Source: a virus (Duplodnaviria; Heunggongvirae; Uroviricota; Caudoviricetes). From it: DNA of 64,000 nt. Each line of letters starts with the position of its first letter. The stretch's first letter is position 1. This document shows, in pieces, positions 2 to 43,307 of the stretch. The translations under genes and the position numbers were made by a program. The notes below the pieces were generated by a model. It made no database searches, was not told where the DNA came from, and worked only from the letters and a program-made list of their open reading frames with translations. The DNA is taken from the IMG/VR virus record IMGVR_UViG_3300029516_000004, positions 1-64,000 of that record. One strand, 5' to 3'.

Positions 2-1525
2 AAACTACAGACGGCAAGAACTATCGGCGGAGTTAGCTTTGATGGTACTGCGAATATTAATTTACCTGGTGTTAACGTTGCGGGTAATCAGAATACATCC
101 GGTAACGCGGCTACAGCGACCAAGTTACAAACCGCTAGAACTATAAATGGGGTGTCGTTTGACGGTTCTAAAAACATTGAGCTAACTCCAAGGTCTATAG
201 GCACGATCAACTCAGCAACAATGTCTTTTAGTGGTGGTGCCGGATGGTTCAAGCTGGCAACTGTAACCATGCCACAGGCCAGTTCCGTGGTTTACATAAG
301 CCTGATTGGTGGTGCAGGGTATAACGTTGGCTCCCCGCGGCAAGCTGGCATATCTGAGCTGGTTCTGCGTGCAGGAAATGGGAATCCAAAAGGTATTACT
401 GGTGCATTATGGCGACGGACCTCGGTTGGATTTACTAATTTTGCATGGGTGAATACATCCGGTAATACCTATGACATTTATGTAGAAATAGGTAATTGCG
501 CCACAGGTGTTAATATCCAGTGGGATTATACAAAGAATGCAACTGTACAAATTCATACATCACCAACTTATACAGCGAATAAACCAACAGGCCTGACAGA
601 TGGAACTGTATATGTAATTTACAGTTCGCACATTAAACCGACCGCCACGGATGTCGGCGCATTACCAATAACCGGAGGGAATCTCAACGGCGGTTTAACG
701 GCTACTGGTGAGATCATTTCAAAATCGGCGAATGGTCTGCGCATTGCCTATGGCAACTATGGATTCTTTATCCGAAACGATGGTTCAAACACATACTTCA
801 TGTTGACCGATTCGGGTGACAGCCTGGGAACCTATAATAGTTTAAGACCGCTTACCATTAACAACGCCAATGGTGCTGTTTCAATCGGTAATGGTTTAAC
901 TGTTTATGGTTCTGTTGGTCTGGGTACTGCAAATGCTCTTGGTGGTAACTCTATCGTCCTTGGCGATAATGATACTGGTTTTAAACAGAATGGTGATGGC
1001 ATTCTTGATGTTTACGCTAATAGCAATAGAGTATTCCGCTTTAAGAATGATGCAGCTTTTTCTTTAAAAAAATTGCTGGTCGGAGATAGTAAAACTTTTT
1101 CATTATCAAGTGCAAACACATCCACTAAGAACGTAACCTTTAATCTATGGGGTGCCTCTACTCGTCCTGTTGTAGCTGAATTAGGTGATGATTCAGGATG
1201 GCATTTTTATAGTCAGAGAAATACTGATAACAGTATAACATTTGCTGTAAATGGTCAGGTGTCCCCCGCTAATTATGGTAATTTTGACTCGCGCTACACA
1301 TTAAAAACGGCTTGTGTGACAAGCGTAAGAATGGGATCTGCTGCCAGTTATAAACCATCAAGCAATGGTGTTTCTTGGACTCAGAATCTAGGAAGCGGAC
1401 TGGTTATGACAGGTATTATTGTTCAAGAAACAGGAAGTCATTCAGCTGACAATATCGGCGGGATTTATTATCGACCGGTTCAATATTGTATCAACGGAAC
1501 ATGGTACACAGCAGCATCAGTATAA
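2..1525 (+). CDS. Tail fibre protein (S-like), 5'-partial; frame is open to the window edge
   Basis: Frame open from nt 2 with no stop; repeated KLQTARTI(G/N)GVSFDG units; Gly/Asn/Ser/Thr-rich; followed by a tail-fibre assembly gene. Confidence 0.8.
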   Translation, partial: KLQTARTIGGVSFDGTANINLPGVNVAGNQNTSGNAATATKLQTARTINGVSFDGSKNIELTPRSIGTINSATMSFSGGAGWFKLATVTMPQASSVVYISLIGGAGYNVGSPRQAGISELVLRAGNGNPKGITGALWRRTSVGFTNFAWVNTSGNTYDIYVEIGNCATGVNIQWDYTKNATVQIHTSPTYTANKPTGLTDGTVYVIYSSHIKPTATDVGALPITGGNLNGGLTATGEIISKSANGLRIAYGNYGFFIRNDGSNTYFMLTDSGDSLGTYNSLRPLTINNANGAVSIGNGLTVYGSVGLGTANALGGNSIVLGDNDTGFKQNGDGILDVYANSNRVFRFKNDAAFSLKKLLVGDSKTFSLSSANTSTKNVTFNLWGASTRPVVAELGDDSGWHFYSQRNTDNSITFAVNGQVSPANYGNFDSRYTLKTACVTSVRMGSAASYKPSSNGVSWTQNLGSGLVMTGIIVQETGSHSADNIGGIYYRPVQYCINGTWYTAASV

Positions 1526-1535
1526 TGAGAGAGCA

Positions 1536-2055
1536 TATGAATAACTTTAAAAATTTCGCACCATATACGCCAGGCGAAGATAAAAGAGAGCTTGTTGATG
1601 CAGGAGTTTTATTCCTGTTGGATGAAAACGGTAACGACTGGTATGAATGTCAAAAGTTATTTTCGGAATGTACAAAAGTAATTGCGTATGATAGCAACAA
1701 TATCGTTGTCAGCATTACAGATGACGCCTCAACCCTTTGGCCCATAGGACTATCTGTAGCAGAAGTGGATAGTTTACCTGAAGATGTAGATATCGACGGT
1801 GGTTGGGTGTTTAGAGACAACTCTGTTGTTAAACGCATATATTCTGATACGGAGTTACAACAGCAAGCTGAATCAAAAAAGGCTGCCTTACTTTCACATG
1901 CCGAATCAGTAATTGTAACTCTTGAGCGGGCGGTTAAATTGAATATGGCAACAGATGAGGAACGAGCTAAACTGGAGGCATGGGAGCGTTATAGCGTGTT
2001 GGTTTATCGCGTAGATACAGCTAAACCAGAATGGCCAGAAGAACCGTTGTTGTGA
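1536..2055 (+). CDS. Tail fibre assembly protein (U/Tfa family)
   Basis: ATG 1536 after GAGAG; C-terminus AKLEAWERYSVLVYRVDTAKPEWPEEP is the typical Tfa signature. Confidence 0.8.
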
Positions 2056-2059
2056 AGTG

Positions 2060-2081
2060 AAGGCCCGATTTATCGGGCCTT
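2060..2081. terminator. Hairpin between convergent tfa genes
   Basis: aaggcccga-ttta-tcgggcctt inverted repeat. Confidence 0.4.
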
Positions 2082-2086
2082 AACTT

Positions 2087-2224
2087 TTAACCTAGCTCAG
2101 TAGGCCAGACGATCGCATTGAAACTGGCTTTATCTGTTATTGTGTTGAAATCTAATGCATTAACTGCATCAATATAGTCCAGCCAGGCGTCAAGAGAAGA
2201 CTGTTCATCTTCAGATAATATTCT
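2087..2224 (-). pseudogene. C-terminal remnant of alternative tail fibre assembly gene (U'-like)
   Basis: Minus-strand frame ends ...DEQSSLDAWLDYIDAVNALDFNTITDKASFNAIVWPTELG (Tfa C-terminal signature), but N-terminal part and partner fibre gene are absent. Confidence 0.5.
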
Positions 2225-2261
2225 GCCGCGTAGTAATTTTGTCTGGCTAATCACGAGCTGT

Positions 2262-2797
2262 TTAGGATTGAAAGGATGACGCCGGAAACTTCTTATAAAG
2301 CGTGGAAACAGCCACATCATAGATGATTGCAACCTGCTTACGGGGGATGCCCTTCTCCAGCAATCGCCGCATTTGCTGCCATGTTTCTTCTTGGTATTTA
2401 GGTCAACGTCCACCTATACGACCTTCTGCGCGAGCTGCATTAAGTCCAGCGCGTGTACGTTCAACGATAAGCTCACGTTCCATTTCTGCCAGCGCCCCAT
2501 TGGTGTACTGGTGTCGATGGAGTCAGTGAGACTCCGGAAGTTAATGCCTCTGTCACGCAGCTCTTCCACCAGCACAACTAAGTGACACATGCCGCGACCA
2601 AGACGGTCTAACTTCCATACGACCAGGGTATCACCTCTGGAAAGCATACGGAGTACCTTTTTTAATCCAGGGCGCTCAGCCTTTTTGCCGCTCGCCTTGT
2701 CCTCAAAAATTAGCTCACATCCTGCGCTTTCAAGAGCGTGTCGTTGTAAAGCAGTGTTTTGTTCATTTGTTGATACGCGTACATAGCCTTTTAACAT
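2262..2797 (-). pseudogene. cin: Cin/Pin/Gin-family serine DNA invertase, disrupted
   Basis: N-terminus MLKGYVRVSTNEQ...SLTDSIDTSTPMGR matches invertases; frame then shifts (expected RFFFHVMG segment missing, ALAEMERELIVERT continues in another frame) and a TGA sits in GRIGGR*PK before the C-terminal HTH QQMRRLLEKGIPRKQVAIIYDVAVSTLYKKF. Confidence 0.7.
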
Positions 2798-29734: not shown

Positions 29735-30228
29735 TTATCCCCGGTATTTACCCAGCGTATGAGCCCGTTCAATTCCCTGTTGTTGCCGTTGGCGACGGCT
29801 CAGCCAGTCCTTATGCGACATCGCGGCCATCAGGTCGATAAGCATGTTATTGATGGCGGTTATCACGGCGCGGGTGATTGGGTCAGCCTGCGAAGGGTCT
29901 TTATCTGACAGCGCCTGCCATGAGGTGGATACATCCAGGCGACAATCCGCAGTTCGTGTTGTTCTATCTGCTTTTTCAGCGTAATCCAGTCACTGTTACT
30001 CAGACGGGTCAGGCGGTCAATTTGCTCGACCAGTAAAATATCATTGCGGTGGCTGTCCATCAGTAAGCGTCCCAGTTCCGGGCGGTCGAGTTTTGTACCG
30101 CTTATGTTCTCCCGGTAGTAACTGGCTATTTTATGTCCCCGCTCCTGAACAAACTGCCCCAGCATCTCTTTTGCCCGATCGGCAAACTGATCTTCCGTTG
30201 ATGCCCTTAAATAAGCTCTGATGAACAT
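29735..30228 (-). pseudogene. Serine recombinase (resolvase family), frameshifted and lacking C-terminal HTH
   Basis: N-terminus MFIRAYLRASTEDQ...LLVEQIDRLTRL in one frame; continuation LDVSTSWQALS...GKYRG* in the +1 frame (one base missing in gtcgcctgg run near 29935) and stops before the DNA-binding domain. Confidence 0.6.
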
Positions 30229-30510
30229 TTTTCCACCACGTTATCGCTTTTAGGTTATTGCATTTAATCTATCGCAATGGCAGAGTCCTGTCCGGGAACC
30301 TCGCGGGCTTCTCTGGAAAACATGCAGGCATGGTACATCCGAGATGAAACCTACTCTGCTGCCCTGGCGGAACTGGTTAAGTAGGTAATGGCCACGTCTT
30401 CGTAGTTGACTAACGCCACGGCTCAATTATAACAATCAATTAGAGCAATGTTATATTGTTTATCTTCAGTCACATTTTTTCACTTTAGTATCTATGTGCT
30501 ATACTCCTTT

Positions 30511-30578
30511 CTGATTGATTGGATGCGGAACACAAACCCGCTCTTTAGTGCAGCCTGGCTCCTTGCCAGGCTTTTTTT
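30511..30578 (+). ncRNA. Candidate small antisense RNA carrying CUGAUUGAUUGG seed
   Basis: -10-like TATACT at 30500-30505, seed 30516-30527, small hairpin gcgg-N9-ccgc, then intrinsic terminator agcctggc-tcctt-gccaggct plus T7; no ORF on either strand. Confidence 0.3.
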
Positions 30579-30888
30579 ATTTCATCATGGAAGCTGTTAA
30601 CGCTTTGGACCTTGCTGAACTGATTGAAAGGACATTGTTAACCTTATCCAAGAGTTCGCCAAAGTCAGACACTACTTTAGCAAAACCGCGCCGTGCTTCT
30701 TCCTCGGTGGCATTCATCACGAAATGTTCAGCACTACGCATACTTCTGACAGGGAACGCAACGGATATTGAGTCAATATCAGGCATTCTATCGCTCAGCT
30801 TTACAGTGACAATGACGGCTGGCGACTGAATATTAGTGCTCACAGACAGCACTACATATTTTCCGTCGATGTTGAAATCCTTTCTCAT
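30577..30888 (-). CDS. Hypothetical protein downstream of cre (Cra position)
   Basis: 103 aa ORF co-directional with cre. Confidence 0.4.
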   Translation of the reverse strand: MRKDFNIDGKYVVLSVSTNIQSPAVIVTVKLSDRMPDIDSISVAFPVRSMRSAEHFVMNATEEEARRGFAKVVSDFGELLDKVNNVLSISSARSKALTASMMK

Positions 30889-30938: not shown

Positions 30939-31970
30939 CTAATCGCCATCTTCCAGCAGGCGCACCATTGCCCCTGTTTCACTATCCAGGTTACGGATAT
31001 AGTTCATGACAATATTTACGTTGGTCCAGCCACCAGCTTGCATGATCTCCGGTATTGAAACTCCGGCACGGGCCATATCTCGCGCGGCTCCGACACGGGC
31101 ACTGTGTCCAGACCAGGCCAGGTACCTCTGGCCAGAGTCATCCTTAGCCCCGTAAATCAATCGGTGAGTTGCTTCAAAAATCCCTTCCAGGGCGCGAGTT
31201 GATAGCTGGCTGGTGGCAGATGGCGCGGCAACACCATTTTTTCTGACACGGCAAAACAAGAAGTTATTCGGATCATCAGCCACACCAGAGACAGAAATCC
31301 ATCGCTCAACCAGTTTAGTTACCCCCAGACTAAGTGCCTTCTCTACACCAGCGGTGCTAACCAGCGTTTTCGTTCTGCCAATATGGATTAACATTCTCCC
31401 ACCGTCAGTACGTGAGATATCTTTAACTCTGATCCTAGAAATTTCGGCTATACGTAACAGGGTGTTATAAGCAATCCCCAGAAATGCCAGATTACGTATA
31501 TCCTGGCAGCGATCGCTATTTTCCATGAGTGAACGAACCTGGTCGAAATCAGTGCGTTCGAACGCCAGCGCCTGTTTTGCACGCTCACCGGCATCAACGT
31601 TTTCTTTTCGGATCCGTCGCATGACCAGTGAAACAGCATTGCTGTCACTTGGTCGTGGCAGCCCGGACCGACGATGAAGCATATTTAGCTGGCCCAAATG
31701 TTGCTGGATAGTTTTCACTGCCAGACCGCGCGCCTGAAGATATAGAAGATAATCGCGAACATCTTCAGGTTCTGCGGGAAACCACTTCCGGTTATTCAAC
31801 TTGCACCATGCCGCCCACGACCGGCAAACGGACAGAAGCATTTTCCAGGTATGCTCAGAAAACGCCTGGCGATCCCTGAACATGTCCATCAGGTTCTTGC
31901 GAACCTCATCACTCGTTGCATCGACCGGTAATGCAGGCAAATTTTGGTGTACGGTCAGTAAATTAGACAT
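30939..31970 (-). CDS. cre: Cre tyrosine site-specific recombinase
   Basis: 343 aa; sequence read as Cre throughout (MSNLLTVHQNLPALPVDATSDEVRKNLMDMFRDRQAFSEHTWKMLLSVCRSWAAWCKLNNRKWFPAEP...), loxP about 420 bp upstream. Confidence 0.98.
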   Translation of the reverse strand: MSNLLTVHQNLPALPVDATSDEVRKNLMDMFRDRQAFSEHTWKMLLSVCRSWAAWCKLNNRKWFPAEPEDVRDYLLYLQARGLAVKTIQQHLGQLNMLHRRSGLPRPSDSNAVSLVMRRIRKENVDAGERAKQALAFERTDFDQVRSLMENSDRCQDIRNLAFLGIAYNTLLRIAEISRIRVKDISRTDGGRMLIHIGRTKTLVSTAGVEKALSLGVTKLVERWISVSGVADDPNNFLFCRVRKNGVAAPSATSQLSTRALEGIFEATHRLIYGAKDDSGQRYLAWSGHSARVGAARDMARAGVSIPEIMQAGGWTNVNIVMNYIRNLDSETGAMVRLLEDGD

Positions 31971-32296
31971 TTAACACTCAGATAATGGTTTTAAGTAAAG
32001 TGTACAGGATCGGCTCTGCCTTTACCTGTTTATGGTTCTCGTCATAGAAACGCCAGCGACCGCGCGTGCGTTCTATTTTCTCTTCACCGCGCGATAATGA
32101 CAGTTGGCAACTATCACGCTCAAACCCTTTTGCCCGCCAGTAACCACGGTTTTTCTCAAGCTCAAGATGAGTGGACACTTTAGCAGCTGAATATCCCATT
32201 TTTCACCTCTGATTGATTGGTGGTGCTAAGTGCGCTACGCGAAATCTGGAGCACTAACACTGCCAACATTTCGCAGATTTTACGTAGCGCAACCTT

Positions 32297-32369
32297 GATC
32301 AAATGATCAAGTGATCACTATTTGACCTGATAAGGTATTGAACTGTATGGATTTACAGGTAAATTGATC
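32297..32369. promoter_or_regulatory. GATC cluster in the cre promoter region
   Basis: Four GATC sites within 73 bp between loxP and cre. Confidence 0.5.
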
Positions 32370-32388
32370 ATATTCAATAACCCTTAAG

Positions 32389-32422
32389 ATAACTTCGTAT
32401 AATGTATGCTATACGAAGTTAT
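32389..32422. other. loxP recombination site
   Basis: Exact ATAACTTCGTATA-ATGTATGC-TATACGAAGTTAT. Confidence 0.98.
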
Positions 32423-32465
32423 TAGGTCTGAAGAGGGGTTTACTTCCAGCTGCGCATAAAAATCA

Positions 32466-36742: not shown

Positions 36743-36764
36743 CCCGGAACGGGCAAGCAATCAA

Positions 36765-37217
36765 TCAGATACGTGCGGATGTAGCATTACCGTAATGACG
36801 GTGCTGACGGGCCACCTTATTGAAAAGTTGACGCGCCATTACCCAAGGCTGGTGCTCCCGGCGTTCCTTTTCGTCCTGCGTCATATAGAGTTCGTTCTGG
36901 AGTTTTTCATCAAACCGGCGCGGAGCGCGGCTACGGCGAAAGAATTCAGGATTCAGAGAGTGGATCTGAAATCTACGTGGGCGTGTACTGTCATCAATCA
37001 AAACAGACGAATACTTAGACACAGCGATAGCCTTTAAGCGCAGATAAACATCGCGCTTATCGACATCCAGATGCGGGTATTCCTTTTCAAGAATTGCTGC
37101 GAGTTCTTTCGCTGATAGAAGAGATTTAGTGCGGATCATGTAATCCGCAATCTCGTACGATGTTATTCGTGAGTGATTTATTTCCATGAAGTGGCGTCCC
37201 TGCCAGTTAAGTAACAT
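36765..37217 (-). CDS. lpa: Lpa late promoter activator
   Basis: 150 aa; position between pdcB and pacA; C1 operator-like site upstream. Confidence 0.7.
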   Translation of the reverse strand: MLLNWQGRHFMEINHSRITSYEIADYMIRTKSLLSAKELAAILEKEYPHLDVDKRDVYLRLKAIAVSKYSSVLIDDSTRPRRFQIHSLNPEFFRRSRAPRRFDEKLQNELYMTQDEKERREHQPWVMARQLFNKVARQHRHYGNATSARI

Positions 37218-42116: not shown

Positions 42117-43307
42117 ATGGGCAAGACACTCTCGGAAATAGCTCAACAGCTTAGTACGCCTCAGAAAGTCAAGAAGACTGTCCATAAAGAAGTTGAAGCG
42201 ACCAGGGCCGTGCCAAAGGTGCAGTTAATCTACGCTTTCAATGGCACGGGGAAAACGCGTCTTTCCCGGGATTTCAAGCAACTGCTTGAGTCCAAAGTTC
42301 ATGACGGAGAAGGTGAAGACGAAGCTGAACAGTCCGCGTTGTCGCGCAAAAAAATCCTCTATTATAATGCCTTCACCGAGGACTTGTTCTATTGGGATAA
42401 CGATCTGCAAGAAGACGCAGAACCGAAGCTGAAGGTGCAGCCTAACTCCTATACAAACTGGTTGCTGACCTTGCTAAAAGATTTGGGACAGGATAGCAAT
42501 ATCGTCCGTTATTTCCAGCGCTATGCGAACGACAAGCTAACGCCACACTTCAATCCAGATTTTACCGAAATCACTTTTTCCATGGAGCGCGGTAACGATG
42601 AGCGTTCCGCCCACATCAAGTTATCCAAAGGTGAAGAGAGCAACTTCATCTGGAGTGTGTTTTACACCCTACTGGATCAAGTGGTAACAATTCTCAATGT
42701 CGCTGACCCGGATGCGCGCGAGACCCACGCATTTGATCAACTGAAATATGTATTCATTGATGATCCCGTTAGCTCCCTTGATGATAACCACTTGATTGAA
42801 CTGGCGGTTGATCTTGCAGGGCTGATCAAATCCAGCGAATCCGATTTGAAGTTCATTATCACGACACATAGTCCAATATTTTATAATGTACTTTTCAATG
42901 AGTTGAACGGTAAAGTTTGCTACATGTTGGAAAGTTTTGAGGATGGTACATTTGCCCTCACAGAAAAATATGGCGACTCTAACAAGAGTTTTTCCTACCA
43001 TCTCCACCTAAAGCAAACAATCGAACAGGCAATTGCTGACAACAACGTTGAAAGATATCATTTCACGTTACTGCGCAATCTTTATGAGAAAACGGCCAGC
43101 TTTCTGGGCTACCCTAAATGGTCTGAACTCTTGCCTGACGACAAGCAGCTTTATCTGAGCAGAATCATCAATTTCACAAGCCACAGCACGCTATCGAATG
43201 AGGCCGTTGCAGAGCCAACGCCAGCGGAGAAAGCGACTGTCAAACTGTTGCTCGATCACTTGAAGAACAACTGTGGCTTCTGGCAGCAGGAACAAAAAAA
43301 TGGTTGA
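42117..43307 (+). CDS. prrC: PrrC anticodon nuclease
   Basis: 396 aa; N-terminal P-loop FNGTGKT; C-terminal R320-x3-E324 ... H356 spacing (LLRNLYEKT...NFTSHSTLS); embedded between hsdS and hsdR as in the prr locus. Confidence 0.9.

Follow-up and report, generated by a model that had tools for sequence, protein, structure and literature searches.

Bacteriophage P1 is among the most studied temperate phages, and its Cre-lox recombination system is a universal genetic tool. The present study concerns a stretch of 64,000 nucleotides of viral DNA (positions 1 to 64,000 of the IMG/VR record IMGVR_UViG_3300029516_000004; hereafter the window), which is a P1/P7-like phage-plasmid, and within it the interval 31971-32430, which is the known loxP-cra-cre regulatory region. 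The leader of the cra gene, situated between loxP and cre, carries a 12-nucleotide (nt) motif at its Shine-Dalgarno (SD) sequence, and the comparisons described here suggest that this motif is probably the binding site of a trans-acting phage RNA of ~65-70 nt. An earlier note on this DNA had pointed to the motif and to a cluster of GATC sites next to loxP; all the parts of that observation are present in the sequence and it is confirmed with three corrections, which are given along with the relevant results.

Several described systems form the background for such an RNA. The c4 antisense RNA (icd-ant, immI; C4 in Rfam) is encoded by P1 and provides a post-transcriptional layer on C1 repression, in which a short complementarity blocks the ribosome-binding region, and the small RNA (sRNA) predicted here resembles it in these respects. 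However, c4 is processed from the transcript of its own targets and employs two loop sequences (a' and b'), whereas the predicted sRNA would have its own promoter, a linear seed at its 5' terminus and three or more targets scattered over distances of up to 18 kb, and the two have no common sequence or structure. The enterobacterial trans-acting sRNAs of the Hfq type, in which the 5' seed is single-stranded (RybB, OmrA/B, MicC), share with it the conservation of such a seed next to a body that varies, as well as a U-rich segment and a Rho-independent terminator ending in a long run of U, while GcvB and the 5'-seed sRNAs also resemble it in having several mRNA targets at or just 5' of the SD. 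The predicted sRNA differs from the RybB-type sRNAs in being encoded by a phage-plasmid and in targeting, as far as tested, the genes of the element itself. Trans-encoded type I antitoxins, such as IstR-1 acting on tisB and RalA acting on ralR of the rac prophage (PMC4041452), are likewise encoded apart from their targets and pair over ~10-20 nt with the mRNA leader. Two of the predicted targets are small hydrophobic open reading frames (ORFs), and a LexA box is found at the promoter region of one target, as for tisB. Unlike for these antitoxins, the predicted targets include non-toxin genes (the cra operon, ref and pmgS), and the target site abuts the SD instead of being a standby site. At the level of DNA, the P1 promoters pR1/P3cre and PkilA are known to be regulated by Dam; the GATC sites over the -35 region of pR1 in the window are at the same positions as in the P1/P7 annotation and represent the described feature itself, and the annotated triple-GATC arrangement of PkilA resembles the one at pR1.

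A predicted small RNA between c8 and ref

The predicted 5' end of a small transcription unit, encoded on the other strand 1.7 kb from the cra leader (~30512-30580), is complementary to the motif CCAATCAATCAG. In the window, the seed of this unit reads GAUUGAUUGG and lies 6 nt 3' of an extended -10 element (TGcTATACT), with a G+C-rich hairpin of 8 bp and a U7 tail ~40 nt further. No gene is present upstream on the + strand for this terminator to serve, and the unit shows neither a protein-coding signal nor an SD and ATG, its only ORF being a TTG-started frame antisense to c8. The predicted RNA of 68 nt has a folding energy of -24.4 kcal/mol in comparison with -14.9 +/- 2.8 for its shuffles (z = -3.4). 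The target motif is placed in a loop or is single-stranded in the predicted folds of both leaders, namely those of cra and of a small hydrophobic ORF discussed below.

The exact 12-mer occurs twice in the window, at 32209-32220 (-) and 30511-30522 (-). The first copy is the motif-SD element of the cra leader, rightly recognised in the earlier note; the minus strand from 32220 to 32197 reads CCAATCAATCAGAGGTGAAAAATG, with the ATG at 32199 opening an ORF of 73 amino acids (aa). The final G of this motif is also the first base of the SD GAGGUG, and in the predicted leader fold the site occupies the 11-nt loop of a small CACC/GGUG hairpin. The second copy, previously counted as a third occurrence of the motif, lies between c8 and the position of ref, is followed by no start codon and is not a leader but the reverse complement of the sRNA seed.

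The sRNA locus, which in P1 would correspond to complement(~1826..1895), was sampled in P1, P7-like elements, ~70 IMG/VR contigs, four divergent lineages (L006/7, L008/9, L010/11 and L012), the complete Salmonella plasmid NZ_CP146848 and the Cronobacter phage JK004. TGnTATACT and the following GATTG-TT are invariant in all the variants collected, with the flanks of the promoter diverging. The first hairpin is swapped for unrelated hairpins between the lineages, and the terminator stem is kept, with a compensatory C-G to U-A pair and G-U changes in the relatives. The region is present in 81 of 5426 complete E. coli genomes (~1.5%). Phage D6, which carries the Dre/rox system, has no cra, motif, GATC cluster or sRNA, and the system is therefore confined to the Cre/loxP lineages.

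The second copy of the motif may also be read as a mere site or a decayed leader, the motif itself being recognised by a sequence-specific RNA- or DNA-binding protein or serving several phage genes in cis as a standby site or an enhancer of translation. Translation is known to be enhanced by C/A-rich elements located 5' of SDs. The copies share their orientation and would co-vary together if the specificity of a protein changed, and an SD-like AAGGAG is found 3' of the c8-ref copy in both P1 and the window. However, no start codon follows this copy, and the relatives do not keep the SD-like bases; what is invariant there is GAGTATA[GT]CAC, which is the extended -10 element of the opposite strand, with the start at the motif and a correctly oriented terminator after it. 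Such a site would also not predict that lineage-specific bases flanking the targets match the bases 3' of the seed in the RNA of the same genome, as described in the next section, and this explanation is considered unlikely.

A search of the window against Rfam at gathering thresholds returned three tRNAs only, the best sub-threshold match on the sRNA region being SorX with 19 bits against a cutoff of 46.6, and no annotation was found at the c8-ref sRNA in P1, P7 or RefSeq E. coli genomes (GenBank/RefSeq). A preprint on P1vir delta-hfq (10.64898/2025.12.28.696737) reports a weaker induction of cra, cre and ref in the absence of Hfq, and c4 is the only small regulatory RNA of P1 that it names. 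The predicted sRNA promoter is of the constitutive type and does not overlap the nearby C1 operator, and the RNA is therefore probably made in lysogens. The antisense reading of the motif is well supported, and it points to the c8-ref unit as a previously unannotated, predicted trans-acting RNA with a conserved regulon in P1-like elements.

A near-copy of the seed is also found at the stop codon and 3' end of lpa (36757..36768, mRNA strand -), where CUGAUUGAUUGC matches it at 11 of 12 positions directly before the lpa terminator hairpin. The lpa 3' end was rejected as a second seed-bearing RNA, since neither the Salmonella plasmid nor JK004 keeps the match and since one-mismatch matches are no more frequent than expected by chance; it is probably fortuitous.

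Predicted target sites and their co-variation with the seed

Target sites were searched for with the 14-nt 5' end of the sRNA on both strands of the window, in place of a noisy 24-nt scan that took in the arm of the first hairpin. The three best trans matches, in the leader of the small ORF, in the cra leader (the second best) and early in pmgS, are all at translation starts and all on the strand opposite to the sRNA gene. The earlier note had described at 46585 the same arrangement as in the cra leader; the layout CCAATCAATCAC-AGGAG-CTGAAAAT-ATG is indeed read from 46610 to 46583, but the last base of the motif there is C and not G. The hydrophobic ORF of 28-53 aa is conserved in four lineages along with its sRNA site, homologues of 46-53 aa with the same leader arrangement occurring in the Salmonella plasmid, JK004 and the locus L194, and no family was found for it in Pfam and PHROG. 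Three lineages have unchanged codons at the pmgS site (xxC CAA TCA ATC), where the match is kept at synonymous positions.

Allowing up to two mismatches, 15 matches to the motif were found in the window, as against 7.6 +/- 2.8 in shuffles, and three of the five near-exact copies outside the sRNA gene are at translation starts on the coding strand (binomial P ~7e-4). In the Salmonella plasmid all the near-exact copies are on one strand and precede a 68-aa ORF, a 356-aa ORF and two hydrophobic ORFs (46 and 50 aa) or lie early in pmgS, besides the copy in the RNA gene; JK004 has the same set of sites and an additional copy fused to the start codon of ref, CCAATCAATC-ATG. In these two complete divergent genomes, near-exact copies are confined to one strand, with 5/8 and 5/6 at translation starts (binomial P ~7e-6 and ~8e-7, respectively). 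In every case the motif precedes the SD by 0-11 nt, coincides with the start codon or falls just within the ORF, and these positions are compatible with a control of ribosome binding. By our own estimate, many 11-12-mers recur by chance in a two-strand sequence of 128 kb, and the shared 11-12-mer might be such a repeat; in view of the enrichment at translation starts, the strand bias, the co-variation and the conservation between lineages whose flanks diverge by 20-40%, almost no weight is given to this possibility.

The second small ORF of the relatives (50-52 aa), with a hydrophobic C-terminal half, is located at 83303 (-) in NZ_CP146848 and at ~70400 (-) in JK004, downstream of darB/ulx homologues. 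It has the same hairpin-motif-SD leader and is without annotation in the PLSDB gene table of the Salmonella plasmid; a copy of its leader was not found in the window.

The targets change with the seed. In every lineage with the seed GATTGATTGG the targets read CCAATCAATC. The Cronobacter contig SRR25030782_57 (L012, L194; D-type) has the seed GATTGGTTGT, and the four sites examined there (the leader of the 68-aa ORF, the start of ref, the leader of the small ORF and pmgS) all read AACCAATC, without the second AATC; that is, in the D-type lineage (seed GAUUGGUU) the target core has switched in concert at 4/4 sites. Its pmgS site reads AACCAATCACC, and between its ref site and the one in JK004, a close relative, there is a difference of one base, which compensates the change in the seed. 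In the Klebsiella loci L006/L007, with the seed GATTGGTTTT, the leader of the 68-aa ORF, the single site compared, reads TAACCAATC. The bases 5' of the target core follow the lineage-specific bases of the sRNA 3' of GG (AU/AU, AG/CU and AAA/UUU). Watson-Crick runs of 8-13 bp are present in all 22 own-genome pairs; outside the D type the runs are 11-13 bp long in 16 of 17 pairs and 9 bp in the other. In a cross-lineage pairing matrix, own-lineage pairs are the best or tied for the best. A scan of IMG/VR for further D-type seeds gave 53 matches, all 53 attributable to chance, and a Cre-profile search of genome contigs yielded two near-identical E. coli loci only.

The hairpin-motif-SD unit could instead be a linker at module boundaries, used in recombination and cassette exchange and devoid of a regulatory role. 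Copies of the motif do occur where the gene content varies (loxP is followed by cra in some lineages and by the 68-aa and 356-aa ORFs in others; where P1 has pmgT, the window has the small ORF beside hsdR), and the P1 record notes a homology of the leader segment of the small ORF with the flanks of the hsd loci in R124/3 and EcoDXXI. Such a linker leaves unexplained the fixed distance to the SD or ATG, the coding copy in pmgS kept at synonymous positions, the promoter and terminator at c8-ref and the concerted D-type change of all the copies, and it is regarded as quite improbable.

Proposed mode of action and significance

In the sRNA-target model proposed here, transcription of cra-cre from pR1/P3cre would be set at the DNA level by the Dam-methylatable GATC sites in the -35 region and by the LexA box, pR1 perhaps responding to LexA. 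The trans-acting RNA would be transcribed from the opposite strand between c8 and ref by a constitutive-looking extended -10 promoter, and its unpaired 5' end, (U)GAUUGAUUGG, would pair with the cra mRNA at -21..-10, abutting the SD. Pairing at or next to the SD would keep the 30S ribosomal subunit off and result in less Cra, and the Cre made from pR1 transcripts would also fall, via the 7-nt stop-start junction. The annotated promoters pR2 and pR3 lie inside cra, downstream of the motif, and give independent cre transcripts, which would escape the sRNA because they are without the target site. Leaky or induced expression of the small hydrophobic ORF that follows pap, and probably of pmgS, would be dampened by this RNA too; in the relatives, its further targets would be ref, the second of the small membrane ORFs and the two ORFs, of 68 and 356 aa, at the head of the cre operon. 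The sequence elements, their conservation, the complementarity and the co-variation are directly observed; we infer that the RNA is made and pairs in vivo, and that the outcome is translational repression rather than activation, although activation may occur instead, given the weak sequestration of the SD in the fold predicted for the leader. The antisense-RNA control of Cre suggested in the earlier note is supported in so far as it applies to cra, by pairing with a conserved promoter-seed-terminator unit and by the seed-target co-variation, but direct control of cre is not, and Cre would be affected only indirectly since pR2 and pR3 are downstream of the motif.

A known antisense RNA, the c4 RNA of P1/P7 (immI), might have been the regulator of this leader, acting via the a- and b-like sites TTGGCAG-T-GTTAGTGC at 32266..32251 (-). 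The window leader does carry an exact P1 b1 site (GTTAGTGC) and an a-like site matching at six of seven positions. However, the window contains no C4 match, the P1 leader (GTTAGTCC) mismatches the c4 of P1, and the P7 leader has a P1-type b site, whereas the loop of P7 c4 is CACAAUC (target GAUUGUG). The b-like site is thus mismatched to the cognate c4 in both phages, so that no single phage keeps the match; moreover, a 7-mer match between RNAs of such lengths is expected about half the time. The resemblance was judged coincidental and c4 was rejected as the antisense partner, a role for it here being very improbable.

Several points weigh against the proposed role of the c8-ref RNA. Its transcription start is placed from the position of the -10 element alone and the RNA itself is predicted from sequence, and its minimum-free-energy fold pairs five bases of the seed with the U-rich linker. 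The pmgS site is outside the classical five-codon window, and the D-type duplexes are short (8-9 bp). The co-variation comes from few independent lineages, with one clear seed switch and differences in the flanks. The effect of the sRNA on Cre may be small because the annotated cre promoters are downstream of the site. Finally, a literature search that included the motif and seed strings found no description of a c8-ref RNA, with the older P1 literature thinly covered, and a prior description is possible.

Nothing annotated or published was found for the c8-ref interval, and Cra is without a known role. If true, the sRNA-target model would add a post-transcriptional circuit to the control of P1 lysogeny, give a first insight into how cra and two unstudied small membrane proteins are regulated, and account for a leader sequence common to otherwise unrelated P1 genes; relatives from Salmonella, Klebsiella and Cronobacter would carry the sRNA, as would the P1-like plasmids found in ~1.5% of the complete E. 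coli genomes. More tentatively, and with clearly lower confidence, a constitutive phage RNA might constitute a third immunity layer beside C1 and c4, acting as a trans type I antitoxin and setting the output of Cra and Cre from the Dam- and LexA-controlled promoter after infection, replication or SOS induction. The genes held down under this doubtful extension would be those behind the cra-cre operon leader, ref, pmgS and two small membrane peptides that may be toxic. As a separate observation of possible interest for an element seemingly using a trans-acting RNA, the Salmonella plasmid NZ_CP146848 encodes a ProQ/FinO-family RNA-binding protein at 2081..2611.

The cra-cre region and neighbouring features

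The segment 30500-33200 is 97.6% identical to phage P7 and ~97% identical to P1. The coordinates of the features in this region and of the predicted RNA and its targets are given in Table 1.

Table 1. Positions in the window of the predicted sRNA, its predicted targets and the features of the loxP-cra-cre region
Feature	Position	Strand	Remarks
Predicted sRNA promoter, TTTTCA-17 nt-TATACT, extended -10 TG	30477..30505	+	Promoter scan
Predicted sRNA, ~65-70 nt: 5' seed (U)GAUUGAUUGGAU (30512-30524), variable hairpin, U-rich linker, terminator	30512..30580	+	Fold, alignment
Predicted Rho-independent terminator of the sRNA, AGCCUGGC-UCCUU-GCCAGGCU, then U7	30552..30582	+	Terminator scan; hairpin 30552..30572 and tail
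cre, 343 aa	30939..31970	-	99.4% identity to P1 Cre
Spacer, 7 nt, cra stop to cre ATG	31971..31977	-	TGA 31978-31980; cre ATG 31968-31970
cra, 73 aa (ORF1 of X03453, 1986 record; Upf0.2 of P7)	31978..32199	-	phrog_804, E=8e-35
Predicted sRNA target site in cra leader, CCAAUCAAUCAG, -21..-10 from ATG	32209..32220	-	11-bp Watson-Crick match to sRNA 5' end, -15.7 kcal/mol
Conserved inverted repeat, GCGCTACGTAAAATCTG ... CAGATTTCGCGTAGCGC, 15-17 bp	32231..32290	-	Encloses pR1 -10 box and first 40 nt of leader
pR1/P3cre -10 hexamer, TAAAAT	32277..32282	-	Position-equivalent to P1 P3cre -10 at 124..129
Three GATC sites, 8 bp apart (TGATCAnnTGATCAnnTGATCA), pR1/P3cre -35 region	32297..32316	.	P7 Dam sites 2-4, nt 90, 98, 106
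LexA box (CTGTAAATCCATACAG core), overlaps divergent P2coi promoter	32341..32360	-	Position-equivalent to annotated P1/P7 LexA site 46..65
Dam site 1 (GATC), adjoins loxP	32366..32369	.	P1/P7 'Dam site 1 within the regulatory region of cre', nt 37-40
loxP recombination site, 34 bp	32389..32422	.	Exact ATAACTTCGTATAATGTATGCTATACGAAGTTAT; annotated in X03453 and AF234172
Hydrophobic small ORF, 28 aa (MNTAFKIIMAAIYFWLFSITFGGIVAHG)	46499..46585	-	Downstream of pap and the C1-controlled OpmgT promoter
Second predicted target site, AUCCAAUCAAUCA, directly 5' of SD AGGAG	46600..46612	-	13 bp perfect to sRNA 5' end; -18.5 kcal/mol, best trans site
Third candidate target, CCAAUCAAUCG, pmgS codons 7-10 (+20..+30)	48495..48505	-	-15.0 kcal/mol, third-best trans site

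The four GATC sites within 73 bp that had been noted earlier (32297, 32305, 32313 and 32366) correspond one-to-one to the four Dam recognition sites in the cre regulatory region of the P7 GenBank record (nt 106, 98, 90 and 37, respectively); the P1 record annotates three, and X03453 carries the promoters pR1-pR3. At least two GATC sites persist at the -35 position of pR1 in all the divergent lineages compared. The cluster alone is unremarkable, as 250 sites placed at random in 64 kb gave four in 73 bp in 42% of the trials; its significance is due to its conservation and the existing annotation, not to clustering statistics. Sternberg and colleagues reportedly found, in 1986, a higher activity of pR1 without Dam. 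The Dam-methylation control proposed for cre was right but already known: the cluster is the known Dam-sensitive cre promoter as annotated by the depositors, and this part adds nothing new. In transcripts starting at pR1/P3cre the motif of the cra leader is ~57-68 nt downstream of the -10 element. The LexA box is kept as CTGT-N8-ACAG in the window, P1, L008, L010 and L012 and reads CTGG-N8-ACAG in L006. The inverted repeat enclosing the -10 box is found, with its bases changed, in all six lineages compared, and its 3' arm and loop form the first hairpin of the predicted fold of the cra leader RNA; it could be an operator or an RNA hairpin in read-through transcripts.

The 73-aa ORF had been suspected of being a coupling leader and not a real protein, which is not borne out. 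It corresponds to cra, homologues of which with 61-68% amino acid identity are present in P1-like plasmids of Klebsiella, Salmonella and Cronobacter; the pairwise ratios of nonsynonymous to synonymous substitutions (dN/dS) are 0.08-0.34, with dS saturated, and an alignment of 10 sequences has 35 invariant columns. In the relatives, cra is an internal gene of the operon: it is not the first gene 3' of loxP and has no leader of its own, its start being overlapped (ATGA) by the 356-aa ORF, which is sometimes preceded by the 68-aa ORF. An AlphaFold2 model of Cra (predicted local distance difference test 71, medium confidence) shows two helices, a four-stranded sheet and a C-terminal helix. No match at E <= 0.001 was found for it with Foldseek against the PDB and no family in Pfam, and its PHROG match, phrog_804, is of unknown function. 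Many Cra homologues are named 'creatininase' by NCBI, which looks like a mix-up with the gene symbol cra, there being nothing enzyme-like in this protein of 71-73 aa.

Contrary to the earlier statement, the ORF stops short of the cre start, its stop codon being separated from the cre ATG by 7 nt. This gap is 7 nt in every lineage examined with differing bases (GTGTTAA, CTAACTT, GCAGACA and TTAAGCT). In L006 and L012 cre is without a good SD, and only GAG is present in the window and in L008/L010. Translational coupling between cra and cre is plausible because the stop-start spacing is invariant and cre lacks a good SD.

In the loci L006-L012 (2697..4004) and in the Salmonella plasmid (62404..63720), the 356-aa ORF (phrog_7674) and often the 68-aa ORF (phrog_19934) separate loxP from cra. 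P1, P7 and the window have neither of them, and the P1 arrangement looks like a deletion that put the leader of the ancestral operon before cra.

Among the neighbouring genes, a 1048-aa type I restriction subunit (hsdR-like) at 43273..46419 (+) faces the small ORF (46499..46585) in convergent orientation, at the position occupied by pmgT in P1. At the place of P1 ref, the window has a 121-aa ORF (29863..30228, -) containing a resolvase N-terminal domain only (PF00239, E=2e-17), that is, a truncated serine recombinase, and the P1 homology of the window ends ~120 bp beyond the sRNA promoter.

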